From the NCBI GenBank assembly GCA_964188305.1, contig OZ076887.1: a DNA stretch of 64,000 nucleotides. One strand, written 5' to 3'. Positions 5,555-13,809 of this stretch are shown here, in pieces; positions within the stretch are counted from its first letter, which is position 1; each line of letters opens with the position of its first letter. The DNA is from Podarcis bocagei. Its lineage: Eukaryota. A program made the translations under genes and the position numbers. The notes under the pieces are model-generated. The model was not told where the DNA came from. It saw only the letters and a list, made by a program, of their open reading frames with translations, and made no database searches.

Positions 5555-5937
5555 TGTGAGATTGGGAAACAATGAAAGCATACAGAAAGGACGTGCCTCA
5601 AACTCAGCCTTGAGAGCTAGACATGTATACAAGATAACACAGTCGCGTACGCCAGAAAGGGCGAGCCAAAGGGTGATGCCCACACTGAGAAGGGAGTAAA
5701 TATGAATAGAGTAGATTGAACAATGTATTAGAAATGTGTTAAACTCTGATAGGTAGATTGTAAGCCAAGCCTCCAAAAGAGGGGCGGCAGTAAGGGATAA
5801 AACTACGGTGCTGAAACCAGATCGGGGCTCTTCGTATCCACGGGTACGAGGGGTCCGCTTTTGCAAACGCGCTAATAAAAGGGTTACCCTTATATTGAAG
5901 TCCTTTGTCAGTTTCTATCCACGGACAACTTCTCACA
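5555..5937 (+). repeat. 5' LTR (383 bp)
   Basis: TGTGAGA...TCTCACA terminal inverted repeat. GC box GGGGCGG 5781-5787, TATA-like GATAAA 5796-5801, AATAAA 5874-5879. I see no differences from the 3' LTR by eye. Confidence 0.96.
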
Positions 5938-5942
5938 ACTTT

Positions 5943-5960
5943 TGGCGCCCAACGTGGGGC
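5943..5960 (+). other. Primer binding site, tRNA-Lys1,2
   Basis: TGGCGCCCAACGTGGGGC, an 18-nt match to the Lys1,2 PBS, 5 nt after the LTR end. Confidence 0.92.
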
Positions 5961-6193
5961 CCTCGACGGGCTGCTCGGGGGGATCCCGGAATCCGGGTAG
6001 GCGCCCCTCCGTCTTTTCGGAGTGACCCGAGCCGGAGTCCACCCGTGACGGTTCACGAGGGCTAAAAGACAGGACTTGATATAGGGGGATAGAGAGAGAG
6101 AACTAGGTCTCATTTTTGGCGGTCCGGGACCGCGAGCACCCAGCGGGGACGCCCGCCTGTTCACTAGTTGCGAGAAGCGACGCTGGACTGTAT

Positions 6194-6202
6194 TGGGTGA
6201 GT
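6194..6202 (+). promoter_or_regulatory. Candidate retroviral major splice donor
   Basis: TGG|GTGAGT (GT at 6197) in the leader upstream of gag. Confidence 0.55.
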
Positions 6203-6413
6203 AGACATGAGAACTTTGTAAACTGTGCTGTGGGACGGGGGTGAGAGACTCGTCTCTTGGATGAAAGAGAGGCTCCATACGGACGCGTGAGTGTGGATCA
6301 GGGTTCGGCCCTGACGGGAGGATTAGCTTGCGGTTCCGTCTCTCCCGCGAGGGAAGCAGCCAGGCGATTCCGTGTGATTGTGTGAGTGAGTGAAATTGGA
6401 GACATTGTAAACC

Positions 6414-6653
6414 ATGGGTAAGGGTCAGAGTAAACGACAGAAGGATTCAAATGGGAAGGGTCCAATTGATCCTAATAGTCCATTAGGACAAATACTGATG
6501 CAATGGGATGAGGACTATCCAAGACAATATACAATAGGCTTGTCAAAAGTGACTATGATTAATTTCTGTAGGGTGGTTTGGCCAAAATACCCTATAGGGC
6601 CGGATGGAATGTATAATTGGAACCCTGAGGGGGAGACTAAGGCTGGATCCTGA
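6414..6653 (+). pseudogene. gag: Truncated gag (matrix region only, 79 aa)
   Basis: MGKGQSK myristoylation motif and PIDPNSPLGQIL..W...MINFCRVVWP...W.PEG, typical of class I MA. Viral similarity ends at ~6633 and the frame stops in host-like DNA. Confidence 0.85.
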
Positions 6654-7833
6654 GCTTGATCAGCTCAGTCACATGACCTCAAAACTCGACATAAATGAAG
6701 GTGGCAGAAATACAGGTGGTGTAACTCAAACTGGATGACGTAATTCTAACTCTATTTTAGATACTCTTTTTTCCTCTGCCTGGCTTAGAACAGCTCAGCC
6801 CGTGGTAGCTCCACTGCTGAATGGAATTTGGAGCCAGTTTATTTAACACAGGCTTAACTTATGCTGGGTTCTTCTGCATAGGATTTCTGCCTAAGAGAGA
6901 ATGGATTGCTCAAGGTCACCAAGTGAGATTTGAACCTGAGTCTGGTCAGTTGCAGTCTATAGCCACCTCTAGAGTCACTGCATCATGCTGGCTGTCTAAA
7001 ACTAGTACAGTGGCACCTCGGGTTAGGAACTTAATTCGTTCCAGAGGTCTGTTCTTAACCTGAAGCGTCTGTAACCTGAAGCGTATGTAACCCAAGGTAC
7101 CACTGTATATAAATATTGCCATAGCCTAGAACAGGCATAGTTGAAGAAAACAGAAATTTGATTTCAATAGACTTCATTTGCAAAATGAAGTGTTTGAGAT
7201 CACCACCTGGTGATAAAAGCAACTATGAATGCTGAAACATAGAATTTGTTTTTGTTAGTTCTAATATTATTCATTCTCAGACAACAGAGAATATATGTTC
7301 TATAACTGAGGGAGGATCCAATAATTTGGATATGTTAGGATGCACTTTCTTTCCACCTAGGTTTGCATAGCACAGTTTGTTTAATCACTACATTGAATAA
7401 AGCTGTATTATTCTATATGTTATTTTTGTTTTAGAAAAGTGGAGGCTTTTGTTTTTAACATTATAAATTATCCCTTGCTTCATTACTATTTCCTCAGAGG
7501 TGCAAATATTGAGGGTTTAGTGATCCGCAAATCAATTTATTGATTAAAAAGGCAGATGATTTATCTACTACAAATATTTATTATGTGAGTCGAATATTTA
7601 CTTCCAGAAAAGAAAGAGGAGGCAGTCTTCAAACCTTTTGTCTTTATATGAACTGGAGCTTTAAAACTGCACAGGGACTTGGAATGTTGCGCTAAATCCC
7701 AAAGTGGTACATTAGTCACCAAAGGTCAACAGATGCAGCCAAAGATCCATGAGAAATTAATTTTTCATGTGGCTTGGCAATTTGTCACATGCAAGCACAG
7801 TTCTTTTATACAGCTATGCATTGGAGGGCACAA
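6635..7833. other. Host-like insert A inside the provirus
   Basis: AT-rich, non-coding and non-viral. Contains a MIR-like remnant (ctcaaggtcacc...gagatttgaacctgagtct, ~6909-6943), a Tc1/mariner MITE, AATAAA at 7396 and a pyrimidine-rich CAG at 7811-7813. Confidence 0.8.
7008..7105. mobile_element. Tc1/mariner MITE (internally deleted) within insert A
   Basis: TA|CAGTGGCACCTCGGGTTA ... TAACCCAAGGTACCACTG|TA. Same family as 52928-53169 in the opposite orientation, with several substitutions. Confidence 0.9.
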
Positions 7834-9138
7834 AGAGAGTGAAGGGAATTTTGGAATTGCAACCCCCTAAGAATAAAACAGACGTAAGAAGGATGTTAGG
7901 GTTGCTGGGGTATTGTAGGCTGTGGATAGATCAATGCGCAAAATTGGTTCAGTTCTTGAATCAAAAACTTGTTGGGGACGAAAAGGTAACGTGGAAACAG
8001 GAGGACAAATTAAAATGGGAGGAGATAAAAAGAACACTGATCGGGGCCCCGGTTTTGGCATTGCCCAATCTCCAGCAACCGTTCCACTTATATGTGACGA
8101 TCAGTTCCCAGACGGCTGTGGGGGTTTTGGCCCAAAAGAGAGGAGGGCGATATCAGCCGGTTGCCTACCTCAGTAAAACCTTGGAACCGGTGGTACGAGC
8201 CTGGCCCACTTGTATCCAGGCAGTGGCAGCTGCAGCTGAACTGGTGGTTGAAAGCAGAAAGTTAACTTTTGGAGGGGCCCTGATAGTTCACAGCCCCCAC
8301 CAGATATCCACTGTAATGACTGGGGCGGCCTTCACCTGGATGACAGATGGTCGCTTGGTAAAATATGAAACCATATTATGGACAAGCCCCAACATCACCC
8401 TGGGGACCGACCGAAATTTAAATCCAGCGGAGTTTTTGATCGGGGAAAGAAAAGAGTGGGAGCCGGATGAGCATGATTGTATGAATACTATACAATTAAT
8501 GTCAAAAGTCCGGGAAGATTTGTCAGAGGTGCCATTGGTAGGGGGAGAAAGATGGTACACTGATGGTTCTAGTTATGTTGAAGAGGGAAGGAGAAAGTCA
8601 GGATATGCTATAGTTAAGGAAGATGGGGAAATTCTCGAAAGCGGAGCTTTGCCGGCAACCTGGTCGGCCCAGAAATGTGAGATTATGGCCCTGGCACGGG
8701 CTCTCGAGTTGGCAAGGGGCTTAGAGGTAACCATATGGACAGACTCCCGCTATGCATGGGGGGGTGGTACATACCTTTGGTAGGACTTGGCGGGACCGGG
8801 GATATATTAAGGCGGATGGAAAGCAAATAGAACACATGGCATTACTAGAAAGACTATTAAATGCCCTCACTGGACCAGAAAAGGTCGCAGTGGTTCATGT
8901 TCCAGCCCACACCAGAGGGACGAGCCCCGAAGAAGTAGGAAATAGGTGGGCTGATTTGAGAGCAAAGGAAGCTGCCAGGGGCACCCCTAGAGCCGCACTG
9001 GTACAACAATATAGTTTGAAAGTACCTGTCCTGACCAAAGCAGATACAGAAAACCTGGTCTTTACCCCCCAAGAGATAGATTACATGAAAAAGGAGGGAT
9101 GGGAACAAAGGGACAATAGATGGGAAACCCCAGAAGGA
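7834..9138 (+). pseudogene. pol: pol fragment: RT thumb/connection, RNase H and linker; one +1 frameshift
   Basis: LGLLGYCRLWI, LALP...PFHLYV, PVAYLSKTL, LNPA, WYTDGSS, SAQKCE, WTDSRY, HVPAH, GNRWAD (all four RNase H acidic residues present). The G7 run at 8758-8764 has one G more than YAWGVVH needs. RT YxDD palm and protease are absent. Confidence 0.93.
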
Positions 9139-9253
9139 CCCCCCCCCTTGGGATTACAATACTACAGAGGGAAGGGCGGCCTTAGAGACTTATCACAGAA
9201 ATGTTTTAGAAGGCATGAGACGGGCAGCGGAAAGGCCTACAAATATGGCGAAA
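9137..9253 (+). pseudogene. gag: Out-of-order gag capsid fragment (39 aa)
   Basis: Frame from 9137 reads DPPPWDYNTTEGRAALETYHRNVLEGMRRAAERPTNMAK, matching the gammaretroviral CA segment P.WDYNT.EGR..L..Y......G...A..RPTN.AK. Not in the supplied ORF track. Confidence 0.88.
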
Positions 9254-9960
9254 TTCTCAAAAATGATTTCTTCTCATCTCTGTTCTTGCTAAAAGACTGT
9301 TGCAGCTAGAAGCGAGTGAACTAACTGTTTCTAACATTCATTCATGAAAGTAACAGGACATCAGTTTGTTTTTTTCCCCCCTTGTGCCAGGCGCTTGGAG
9401 GTAGCTTCAGAGCGTTATCTCTTGGCTCCTATTCCAAGAAGGACACTGCTGCATTCAGCCAGCCACCCTGAACCTCACACTTTCTGGATTTACAGTTCAG
9501 CCACATAAACCCAGAAGGCCAAGAGTTACCCACCCCCCTGCCCCAAAGTATTAACCTGGAAAAGTGACTTTCTTAAAAAGCAAGTGAATGCTTTCTGTGA
9601 ACTTTGTCAAGTTTTTCTTTTTAATGTGTAATTTTACTCTGAAAGGAGCTGCGGCATAGGAATTGATACTTTGAGGAATTTGAAACTTTGCCAGAAGCAA
9701 GGAGTGCATTGTTCTTTCTACAGACACTGGCAAATGAACTGAAATTTGCAACATGGCTTAGAGTTCTGAAACTTAGAGCACACAAATAAGACTTTTGAAA
9801 AATCTCGGCTGGCAAAACTTAACCCAAGGAACAGAACTGTTAACCCCTTGCGAAGTTTCTTGCCATGCTGACCCCTTTGAGTTAATATACCTTATGTGCA
9901 AATGTTATCTATCAATTTGTTCTGTGCAATCGCTGCCGTCTTTGTTATCTCTTCTCTTAA
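9254..9960. other. Host-like insert B inside the provirus
   Basis: Non-viral, intron-like composition. Ends in a polypyrimidine tract plus CAG (ttatctcttctcttaacag, AG at 9962-9963). Confidence 0.78.
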
Positions 9961-10121
9961 CAGGTGGACTTCACAGAGCTACCAGAGAGCATGGGTGGAC
10001 TCACTATCACAGGGTCAAGAAAGCCCCGCAGGACTGGAGGGTAACTGTTGACCCCGATAATCCGCTGAAGGTGACGCTTACCAATCAGGGAACCAGGAAC
10101 CAGAAAGAATCCAAACGCTGA
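9961..10121 (+). pseudogene. pol: Integrase remnants: core start fused to C-terminus
   Basis: 9961-9984 reads QVDFTELP (first catalytic D of the IN core). From ~9981 another frame reads TREHGWTHYHRVKKAP..W......NPLKVTL to the stop at 10119-10121. The intervening IN core is deleted. Confidence 0.85.
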
Positions 10122-10126
10122 CCTCG

Positions 10127-10351
10127 ATGTGTCTATTCTGTACTTGCAAATGTTTTTATGAATGCTGTTGCTGTGCTCATTGCGAATGTTGTGTGTTATG
10201 TGTGCATTGCACTGAGTTGTGTGACATAATTTTCATAGAAGACATAATTATACAATATTGTGCCATCACCCTTGAGGGAGAGGTCAATTGCAGTTTGAGC
10301 TGGACTCCCATGGTAGTGCAAGCTGTAAACCAATTAAGACGGAAGCAATGA
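10127..10351 (+). CDS. Cys-rich 74-aa ORF between pol and env (candidate accessory protein)
   Basis: ATG 5 nt after the pol stop. 16 Cys, 14 of them in the first 32 residues. Its TGA (10349-10351) overlaps the env ATG (10348-10350). Confidence 0.6.
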   Translation: MCLFCTCKCFYECCCCAHCECCVLCVHCTELCDIIFIEDIIIQYCAITLEGEVNCSLSWTPMVVQAVNQLRRKQ

Positions 10352-11322
10352 TAGCAGGGTTCAGCCTCCTGATTATGCTAGGGAGTATCCTGGCCACCGA
10401 AATTCAAGATGAGAGCTGCAGCCAATGTATCCGAGTTACTAAAACTGGGACAGTAATTACACGAACTTTAATGTATTATAATGTTGCCCCCGAGTGTGTA
10501 GTAGAATTAGACCCCTGTGTCCACAATCAGACCCAATATCTTAGATGTAAGACCCAAAAGAATGAAACGGAATGTTATGAGCCCTTAGCGGTGGGACCTA
10601 TTACCTCTAGCATATATGTATATGGATATAAAGGGGGAACAGCAAATAAGGCAAGTGAAAGGGCACATATGTTTTCCCTAGCACAAAATAGGCGGGGATA
10701 TATAGCTCACAACTCCACCAGGGGCACGGAGAAGATACATGTTTGTTTTGATGCATGCATTGCTATTTCAAAGGGACAGGGGCCTAACGACCAAGCTGGA
10801 GTCACTTGTGGGTCATTAAGCTGGGAGAGAGCTTATCTCCAAGAGAATAAGTACCTGTTCCAACAGATTGCCGGTTCCAATATAGGGGCCACAAGGGTGA
10901 CGAACCATTGGTATACAAATGGGGTGAAAGAGATACCCCTATATAGGGGTCCGAAGGGGATAAATATCACCAGGGGAGCGGCTTCGACGGCCTGTGGGTC
11001 AGGACAATGCAATCCTGTATGTCTGTGGGCTAAGGAACTCCCGTCCACTAGACCTAAATATATTCACCTTGGTTTGGGGATAGATGGAAATGGGAAGGAT
11101 CCTTATGGGCACCTAATCATAAAAGTACATACTACTAAGGTCAGCAAACAGCCAATCTCAGTATTTGAGAGCTTTGAAGAAGAAATACAACAATTAAATA
11201 AATTACCTCTTCCCCCAAGAGCTCATAACATGTTTTTGAGTCTAGCTGAGACTATCGCCAAAGAGCTAACTGTGAAAAATTGTTTTGTATGTGGAGGAAC
11301 GAATATGGGAGTTATTATGTGA
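10348..11322 (+). CDS. env: Truncated Env, 324 aa: signal peptide plus N-terminal SU only (ERV3/HERV-I-type)
   Basis: MIAGFSLLIMLGSILA signal peptide; CSQC; TRTLMYY; C.HNQT.Y..C; VFESF...LP.PP...NMFLSLAETIA..L.V.NCFVCGGTNMG, closely paralleling human ERV3-1 Env. Stops 3 codons later. No furin site, ISD or TM domain. Confidence 0.9.
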   Translation: MIAGFSLLIMLGSILATEIQDESCSQCIRVTKTGTVITRTLMYYNVAPECVVELDPCVHNQTQYLRCKTQKNETECYEPLAVGPITSSIYVYGYKGGTANKASERAHMFSLAQNRRGYIAHNSTRGTEKIHVCFDACIAISKGQGPNDQAGVTCGSLSWERAYLQENKYLFQQIAGSNIGATRVTNHWYTNGVKEIPLYRGPKGINITRGAASTACGSGQCNPVCLWAKELPSTRPKYIHLGLGIDGNGKDPYGHLIIKVHTTKVSKQPISVFESFEEEIQQLNKLPLPPRAHNMFLSLAETIAKELTVKNCFVCGGTNMGVIM

Positions 11323-11338
11323 GTTTGAGGCAAGGTAC

Positions 11339-11352
11339 AAAAGAGAGGGGGG
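11339..11352 (+). other. Polypurine tract
   Basis: AAAAGAGAGGGGGG ending 2 nt before the 3' LTR. Confidence 0.92.
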
Positions 11353-11354
11353 AT

Positions 11355-11737
11355 TGTGAGATTGGGAAACAATGAAAGCATACAGAAAGGACGTGCCTCA
11401 AACTCAGCCTTGAGAGCTAGACATGTATACAAGATAACACAGTCGCGTACGCCAGAAAGGGCGAGCCAAAGGGTGATGCCCACACTGAGAAGGGAGTAAA
11501 TATGAATAGAGTAGATTGAACAATGTATTAGAAATGTGTTAAACTCTGATAGGTAGATTGTAAGCCAAGCCTCCAAAAGAGGGGCGGCAGTAAGGGATAA
11601 AACTACGGTGCTGAAACCAGATCGGGGCTCTTCGTATCCACGGGTACGAGGGGTCCGCTTTTGCAAACGCGCTAATAAAAGGGTTACCCTTATATTGAAG
11701 TCCTTTGTCAGTTTCTATCCACGGACAACTTCTCACA
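11355..11737 (+). repeat. 3' LTR (383 bp)
   Basis: Direct repeat of 5555-5937 at an offset of exactly 5800. AATAAA at 11674-11679. Confidence 0.96.
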
Positions 11738-13809
11738 TACAGCAACAGTGTTTTGAGTTGTGTAGGCTCCTGTGATGTAAATAATGGGCCCTGCCTGCTA
11801 GCCTGCTCCCTAAAATATCACTGGTTTGCTCATTTCTAGATATAGGGTGCCTACATTCTGCATGTGCTTTAGCTACCTATTAGGCCCATAAATTACCATA
11901 TAGCATATATTCAACACACAAAAACAGTGACAATTTGTTGTTGACAAAGGGCCGCTGGACATATAAAGGGCCCCATTACCTTCAGTAGCTTAGGGCTTCA
12001 TCAAACCTAAATCTGGCCCTGCACACAATGAGCATAAAACAATTTGCCTATTCTTCCTTCGGGGAAAAGGGATCTTTGCGTGGTATGAACACAAGGGCAG
12101 CCCAAGGCATTTTGGCACCTGAGGCAGACATCCAAATGGCGCCCCCTCCCTGCTTAGGAAGAAGGGATGAGGCGAGATCTACATCAGGAACAAGGTGGTG
12201 GTGGTGGGGAGAGATCGGCATCTGGATCTGCTGCCTCGGTGATTCCTGCTGCCTGAGGCAGTCATCTCAGCTTGTCTTACGGCTGGGACGACCCTATATG
12301 GACACTAACAGTTAAACTCACACATTAGTTGGGGCTTCAGGAGCAGCAGGGACAGTGGCAGAAACCTAAGAAGCAAAATGTACAAAAACAGGAGAAGGGA
12401 AATGGAGAGCCAGGAGTGTCATGTTTAGACATTTGTTTAATGTCTTACTCTTACTAGGTAGAAATAGATTTGACATCACTGTGCCAGTTGTCCTATATCC
12501 CCTGGAGAGCTAATGCAGGTGTGTAAGGAAGGGCATGTTTACTCAAGCTGCATTTTACATTGTGATTTATCTCTTTATTCTTCAAGGAATATTTATTCTT
12601 CAAGAAATATTCTTCAAGGAATATTTTTCAATGTGAGACAAATTAAATGTCAAAAAAGCTAATTTGGCTGCTGTTCATAAATTACATTGCCATTTAAATG
12701 CATTAATTTCATTCTTATTGCTATACTTTCTCGCTTTTCATTGCAGGATTCTGTGAGATAGCCACTGGCTTTATCAATGTTTGTCTTTTATGAATGATTT
12801 AGTACTGTTTTTCTACACATCCCATTGTAAATGGGAAAATAGGATTGTTATGTCCTCTATTATTGCTAAAAGTTTAATTATTACAAATATTTGCCCCAGT
12901 TTTGTCGTAATGAAATGGTGATTTTAAACAGAAGGGAATGGGGTTTTCTATTTAGATTCACTATGAGGTTTTGAATTATTGTGACAATAATGATACCAAG
13001 CGGATATTTTTATGCCCCCAGATTTATACCTTCAGTATTTCATTACTCTTTCTCCAGTATTTCAGTGCTTTGACCCTTCATTTTAGAGAGGCGTTCTAGA
13101 GAAGTATATTTATAGGGGCAAGCAATAATGGTTTCTTCCTGGAACTCTGAACAATCTTGGCATATTTCACACATCTTCAGAAAATGTTGTCAGTTCCCTT
13201 CATTTATCCCTTTCCTGTACATTTCTAAAGGTAGGATAGGATAAGTAAATGGAAACAACTCGACAACCCAAAACAGGTGTGTATACTTGACCTAGGATTT
13301 GCTAAAGATTTGGTTAACCAAGTATCTTCATGTGTTGCCATTGCGATGATACTATCTATATGTATATCACCTGCTTCTGTTGGAAGAGAGGTGTAGATTA
13401 CCCCTCATATGTTGAATGCACTTCTGGCTGCAGTGGCCACCTGGGTAAAGAAGGATCCAGGAGCAGACCTAGACCAGGTATCTCTTCCTTCAGAAGGGAG
13501 TTCAGCCCTGTCCTCACTGAAGTATCTCCTGGTCCTGGACATAGAATCATAGAATTACAGAGTTGGAAAGGACCCTAAGGATCATTTTGATGTTTTATTA
13601 TGTTTTATACCTGTTGGAAGCCACCCAGAGTGGCTGGGGTAACCCAGACAGATGGGCAGGGTACAAATAATAAAATTATTATTATAATTATTACTCCTAT
13701 CCCCATCAATGCAAGAATATATAGCTGCCCCATACAAGGACCAAACCTGCATCCTTAGTATTATCAGCCATCTGAGCTATCCAGGCTTGGAAACCTCTAC
13801 CTGTGTAAT

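Follow-up and report, generated by a model that had tools for sequence, protein, structure and literature searches.

The gap between pol and env in a provirus at positions 5555–11737 of the window (the 64,000-nucleotide stretch of Podarcis bocagei DNA analysed here; all features of the provirus given below lie on its + strand) is filled by a 74-codon open reading frame (ORF; 10127–10351), which is a protein-coding gene under purifying selection. The ORF occurs in two lineages of this virus, A (the lineage of the window provirus) and B, and is missing in a third, C. Taking all the data into account, we consider it fairly probable that this is a selected accessory gene encoding a small acidic, putatively zinc-binding adaptor, which would be translated from the env mRNA as its first cistron, Env itself being reached by leaky scanning.

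The integrase tail ends with the pol stop at 10121, 5 nt before the ATG of the ORF, exactly as the original prediction had it, and our recount likewise gave 14 Cys and two His in residues 1–32 (10127–10222). This Cys/His cluster, predicted to bind metal, is followed by a hydrophobic/acidic middle part and a predicted C-terminal helix, and the TGA of the ORF overlaps the env ATG in an ATGA stop–start junction (10348–10351). When the 229-nt interval was shuffled 3000 times with its dinucleotides preserved, an ATG-led ORF of at least 72 codons arose 11 times (0.4%), and the comparison of lineages A and B is far stronger evidence than this chance estimate.

The lineage B orthologue (L033:6823-7047) also encodes 74 aa, and over 73 aligned codons the two proteins have 60% amino acid identity, with pS 0.82 and pN 0.23 (Fisher p=7e-13), the differences being distributed as 23/14/41 over the three codon positions; both alternative frames contain stops in this comparison. 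For residues 1–32, dN/dS is 0.13, near the value for the env SU (0.09), and for residues 33–74 the synonymous sites are saturated, with pN 0.33. Fifteen out of 16 Cys of lineage A and both His are kept in lineage B (13 Cys and both His within the cluster), and the codons of the conserved Cys switch between TGT and TGC. Since the codons switch while Cys is kept, the TG richness of the sequence is explained by selection for Cys and not the reverse, which refutes the suggestion that the Cys are a by-product of TG-rich DNA. Thus, three of the checks proposed with the original prediction, namely, retention of the frame, here together with the 74-aa length, conservation of the Cys spacing, and dN much lower than dS, gave the expected result between A and B; conservation of the ATGA overlap did not, as the overlap seen in the window is specific to lineage A, the junction in lineage B being TAA-T-ATG.

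The region was also found in sequencing data from other organisms: 14 runs under seven organism codes, all of them DNA or unlabelled and none on record as RNA, contain 45–66% of its words, and in each of the four such runs that were aligned (four organism codes) a contig extends across the whole ORF. Of the 40 substitutions listed for these four runs, out of 167 in all, 14 fall into the ORF, 12 of them synonymous. None of the nine indels listed is in the ORF, seven being in the pol tail or spacer, and two, in env.

Genome searches, with the copies fetched, yielded six copies of lineage A including that of the window, all of them defective, one copy of lineage B (L033, 8.9 kb long, its pol and env interrupted by frame breaks), and five copies of lineage C. 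The ORF is whole in the single lineage B copy and in five out of six lineage A copies, codon 69 being a stop in the sixth (L035). Open frames say little in lineage A, whose copies are young. The ORF is absent from all five lineage C copies, where env starts approximately 11 nt after the pol stop, and therefore the gene is accessory. The original claim of a genuine accessory gene is thus borne out, the ORF being coding, under purifying selection between A and B, and missing in the sister lineage. Gag and pol group lineage A with lineage B (90–94% identity versus 64–86%), as does the integrase tree (support 89/78); in env SU the three lineages are roughly equidistant (81–82% identity), the SU tree is unresolved, and the two trees do not settle whether the ORF was gained or lost.

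The provirus of the window is a young, defective class I (gamma-like) element with identical LTRs. The 5′ LTR (5555–5937) and the 3′ LTR (11355–11737) agree over the 300 nt reported, a short target-site duplication is present on both sides, and the primer-binding site (5943–5960) matches host tRNA-Lys(CTT). Between them lie a 5′ fragment of gag (6414–6653); a host insert in place of most of gag, PR, and RT (6630–7856), whose source is a unique locus on contig C6 (97–98% identical); a pol fragment with the RT connection and RNase H (7836–9132), with a frame break near 8760; an insert derived from a host repeat and replacing most of integrase (9127–9971); an integrase remnant consisting of the C-terminal tail and the pol stop (9964–10121); the accessory ORF; and a 324-aa env of the EnvR/ERV3 type (10348–11322), comprising the signal peptide and SU, from which TM has been removed by deletion. 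Hence, the copy has lost the bulk of gag and RT, the core of integrase, and the TM part of env, and it contains two inserts of host origin. The C6-derived 1.2 kb insert is shared by five out of six lineage A copies, and the 0.85 kb host repeat, with about 40 matches across the genome, by all six; the LTRs are identical or near-identical in all six copies, and the defective element spread carrying its host inserts. The TM deletion, found in the window and in L035, leaves the 324-aa signal-plus-SU frame open, and its product is possibly a secreted SU, by analogy with receptor-blocking truncated Envs. Outside the provirus, an 82-aa ORF opening with a small Cys cluster (13330–13578) has no Pfam match and is probably due to chance.

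The virus belongs to class I according to three features: the RT of L033 scores 271 bits against the MLV-type RT, compared with at most 129 bits for the next groups and about 63 for the HIV-1 RT; in L033 and L034, gag and pol lie in one frame with a TAG readthrough stop between them; and the L033 integrase has the MLV-type C-terminal domain (PF18697, above the curated cut-off). The env is assigned to the EnvR/ERV3 type by the CXXC motif in SU (CFVC in the window env) and CX7CC in TM (in L033). This virus thereby shares its Env motifs with the EnvR (ERV3-1) supergroup, for which CXXC in SU and CX7–9CC in TM are described in bioRxiv 10.1101/2024.03.17.585361; a word search of this preprint found neither “accessory” nor “ORF.” The nearest named env is the ERV3-1-like Env of Zootoca vivipara (72% identity), which points to a lacertid lizard as the probable host. 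HERV-I and ERV3 in the strict sense have a tRNA-Ile or tRNA-Arg primer site. Two out of three loci scanned were called tRNA-Lys, and, because the primer site is that of tRNA-Lys(CTT), the virus is strictly neither HERV-I nor ERV3; of the earlier designation as HERV-I/ERV3-like, the class and the ERV3/EnvR-type env stand.

The position of the ORF on the viral mRNA can be deduced from traces of splicing. Lineages B and C have a polypyrimidine–AG acceptor within the integrase tail, and in four out of six lineage A copies an integrase donor (AGG/GTGGGT in L033) is joined exactly to the acceptor (CATAG/ACG), so that the junction is a precise loss of the GT–AG intron present in lineage B. We take this precise loss as a reverse-transcribed record of acceptor use. 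In the window copy and L035 the native env-type donor–acceptor junction has been lost by deletion. The AUG of the ORF is the first one after the acceptor in lineage A, 303 nt downstream, and is preceded by a single three-codon ORF in lineage B; downstream of the homologous acceptor of lineage C, the AUG of env comes first, 279 nt on. As its AUG is the first (A) or the second (B) after a used acceptor, the ORF is probably the first cistron of an env-type mRNA, which supports the earlier placement on the env subgenomic mRNA. In two putative-RNA contig sets, one contig spans the ORF and the env start, with a 27-nt gap; two raw RNA runs have a mean depth below 1 over the ORF, and at this thin cover neither the runs nor the contig sets gave a viral splice joint.

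According to the proposed scheme, the upstream acceptor in the integrase tail would yield a spliced env-type mRNA, and the Cys-rich ORF would be read as its first cistron. The context of the ORF AUG is weak, with neither a purine at −3 nor G at +4 in A or B, and the env AUG has a purine at −3 in both. Some ribosomes would thus pass the first AUG and reach that of env, and Env would be produced from the same mRNA, in a layout resembling HIV-1 vpu–env. Leaky scanning, with re-scanning after short internal ORFs, is likely the simplest reading of these start-codon contexts. Against this reading, further out-of-frame AUGs inside the ORF number five in lineage A (one in lineage B), and compared with synonymous nulls the interval from the acceptor to env was not significantly poor in AUGs (P 0.15–0.96).

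The five extra AUGs of lineage A, which would hinder scanning, speak for another arrangement of the same real gene, where the ORF has its own mRNA served by the shared acceptor, and a second acceptor inside the ORF serves env in a multi-spliced message. The use of the internal integrase donor shows that multiple splicing does occur, and pyrimidine–AG sites are present inside both ORFs. However, these candidate sites are at unconserved positions in A and B, and the homologous acceptor in lineage C feeds env directly; we regard separate mRNAs as a tentative alternative, on balance rather unlikely.

Coupled termination–reinitiation at the stop–start junction, the mechanism suggested originally, also takes the gene to be real, and several observations are consistent with it. 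The env AUG lies −4 to +1 nt from the ORF stop in both A and B, and this close junction is kept although the 3′ halves of the ORFs are synonymously saturated and the signal peptides are only 14% identical; an ATGA junction is also seen at the end of an unrelated pol–env ORF in another family (L054–L056, L084); and, according to PMC3542737, AUGA, UAAUG, and AUGnnUGA junctions serve reinitiation in caliciviruses and influenza B. On the other hand, TURBS needs the UGGGA motif 1 at 40–90 nt upstream of the stop (PMC3542737), and TGGGA is absent throughout the ORF of lineage A and that of lineage B. Thus, the overlapping or nearly touching stop and start codons resemble the calicivirus and influenza B TURBS systems, as they are described there, but the lizard virus differs from them in having no motif 1 and a junction whose type changes between A and B. 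Moreover, in yet another family the ORF and env are separated by a 13-nt gap, and the weak first AUG offers a simpler route. Since the overlap is not conserved, UGGGA is lacking, and the ORF AUG is weak, leaky scanning fits better, and coupled reinitiation appears unlikely.

The encoded protein is net acidic (eight Asp/Glu versus four Lys/Arg in lineage A, ten versus three in lineage B) and has no clear membrane span, the highest sampled 19-residue hydropathy being 1.7 in A and 1.3 in B. The short basic end noted in the original prediction is lineage-specific, lineage B ending in acidic residues, and a function for it is not supported. Together, the acidity, the lack of a membrane span, and the unconserved basic end argue against both an RNA-binding protein of the Tat/Rev type and a membrane protein, and the invariance of both His within C-x-H-C motifs and the fixed Cys spacing between A and B favour a predicted multi-zinc cluster, behind which the sequence is more variable up to the predicted helix. 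We therefore give somewhat better than even weight to a zinc-binding adaptor acting on a host factor. In this capacity, the Cys/His cluster would bind several zinc ions, the C-terminal part would provide a protein-contact surface, and the host factor would be targeted in the manner of Vif/Vpu-type proteins. The structure model has pLDDT 49 overall, with 36–40 in the Cys region and 57–61 in the C-terminal predicted helix, and is poor because only two divergent sequences exist; a fold search with it gave no matches at E≤0.001, a result that is meaningless at such confidence.

The main rival to zinc is a multi-palmitoylation anchor of the CYSTM-like kind, in which the Cys run would tie the protein to membranes or virions. 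The CCCC and CC runs near the N-terminus and the moderate hydrophobicity agree with such an anchor. Palmitoylated clusters, however, are usually flanked by a basic patch or a membrane span, neither of which is found beside this one, both His are invariant inside the C-x-H-C motifs, and there is no Pfam match at E≤1. The sequence thus favours metal binding, and palmitoylation seems improbable. Still less probable, to the point of being very doubtful, is a Tat-like RNA-binding transactivator, despite the same genomic position and the CC-x-HC-xx-C motif found in both A and B, which resembles part of the Cys region of Tat. This motif arises in 4.7% of shuffles of an equally Cys-rich peptide, only half of the full Tat spacing is present, the net acidic protein has no arginine-rich motif, its RRKQ end is not conserved in lineage B, and neither Pfam (E≤1) nor PDB sequences (E≤10) gave a match. 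Finally, the reading of the ORF as TG-rich spacer DNA that does not code, or as a regulatory uORF with an irrelevant peptide, has next to no probability: the sequence is indeed TG-rich and young copies would hold any frame open by chance, but the frame, length, and Cys pattern are conserved despite saturated synonymous divergence, and the synonymous bias is seen in runs from other organisms as well.

Apart from the Pfam and PDB searches, no match was found in phages, and no homologues were found among 5.8 billion proteins with either the single sequence or the two-sequence alignment as a query (proteins of 40–130 aa, word-limited search). A search of the ESM Atlas gave no usable match. A host source of the ORF in the genome could not be detected either: out of eight matches, seven are proviral, and the remaining one (E 0.66) contains a stop. 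Scans of IMG/VR with env and integrase found nothing, as did a first metagenome scan; a second one found two distant loci, of which L103 has a short pol–env spacer with no ORF, and L104 (L104:2871-3230), a degenerate one, has open frames in its spacer of approximately 360 nt, no ATG-led ORF, and no visible homology. The gene is apparently undescribed, no description of such an ORF having been found in the full texts searched, which come mainly from outside the subscription journals.

Among known systems, the closest in layout are the lentiviral genes between pol and env. The HIV-1 vpu–env mRNA is bicistronic and is read by leaky scanning, and Tat has a Cys cluster. The lizard ORF is similarly small, Cys/His-rich, and placed on a spliced mRNA with a weak start before env; in contrast to Vpu, it has no comparable membrane span, in contrast to Tat, no basic RNA-binding motif, and it has no sequence match to either, while its carrier is a gamma-like class I virus. 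The ORF is thus, as far as sequence comparison goes, a lentiviral-type accessory gene in layout and a member of none of the lentiviral families tested. According to PMC9967133, accessory genes are few or lacking in viruses with a gamma-type Env, and, taking absence of a pol–env accessory gene as the criterion, lineage C has a simple genome, and lineages A and B do not. The pol–env interval of the crocodilian ERV4 element CrocERV29 is reported to contain a captured KIT-ligand ORF under purifying selection (PMC4299795). It is similar in being an extra pol–env ORF of a reptile ERV under purifying selection, and different in belonging to the ERV4 group and containing a recognisable host gene (PMC4299795), whereas no source in the host genome could be detected for the lizard ORF.

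The divide between simple and complex retroviruses becomes blurred when a reptile class I virus that was active recently has a selected accessory gene and its sister lineage has none, and the lineages with and without the gene provide a natural comparison; the binding partner of the small protein could point to a new reptile antiviral factor. Judging from further ORFs located in the pol–env interval of other loci, this genome may contain an entire set of uncatalogued genes of the kind. In the 20 loci that follow in the integrase search (L054–L073), an ORF of 117 aa occupies the pol–env slot in 11 and its cut form in one, an ORF of 135 aa is present in five, and an open frame of 126–127 codons, 44–45% identical to the 117-aa ORF, in three. 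It is an evenly balanced proposition that lizard gamma-like class I viruses are complex retroviruses with a swappable pol–env slot, which in other families of this genome would hold at least three more, unrelated accessory ORFs (117/127, 135, and 77 aa), and that the Cys-rich ORF would found a family of zinc-cluster host antagonists.

None of these additional ORFs (117/127, 135, and 77 aa) has a Pfam match. The 117-aa and 126–127-codon forms share a TYSCGC motif (L057–L073, e.g., L061:1899-2249; L084:514-891; L055:1885-2265), and the L084-type frame has a GTG start and a stop that overlaps the env ATG as ATGA. This family was rejected as a homologue of the Cys-rich ORF (hhalign probability 0.1%), and its structure prediction did not fold (pLDDT 35); an open frame of the metagenome contig L104 contains LSCCG, faintly like TYSCGC. 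The 135-aa ORF, with a CCC run (L078:683-1087, also L060, L062, L065, L066, L068), precedes an apparent remnant of the 117-aa ORF, and thus one accessory gene has apparently been replaced by another. In a further class I family (L077:607-1090), the spacer in front of env, about 600 nt long, contains two open frames, one of them the 77-aa ORF; in the large family of L074, a comparable ORF is not seen. There is also a large class I family of young elements in this genome: of the 150 matches scored among 937 candidates, many have a 1198-codon open pol frame. The Zootoca env of the SU family to which A, B, and C belong (P0001) has a long WWEEPW-type leader, as do the unrelated D/E-family envs (L054–L072, L078), whereas the signal peptides of the three lineages all differ from one another; apparently, env modules have been exchanged at the signal peptide.
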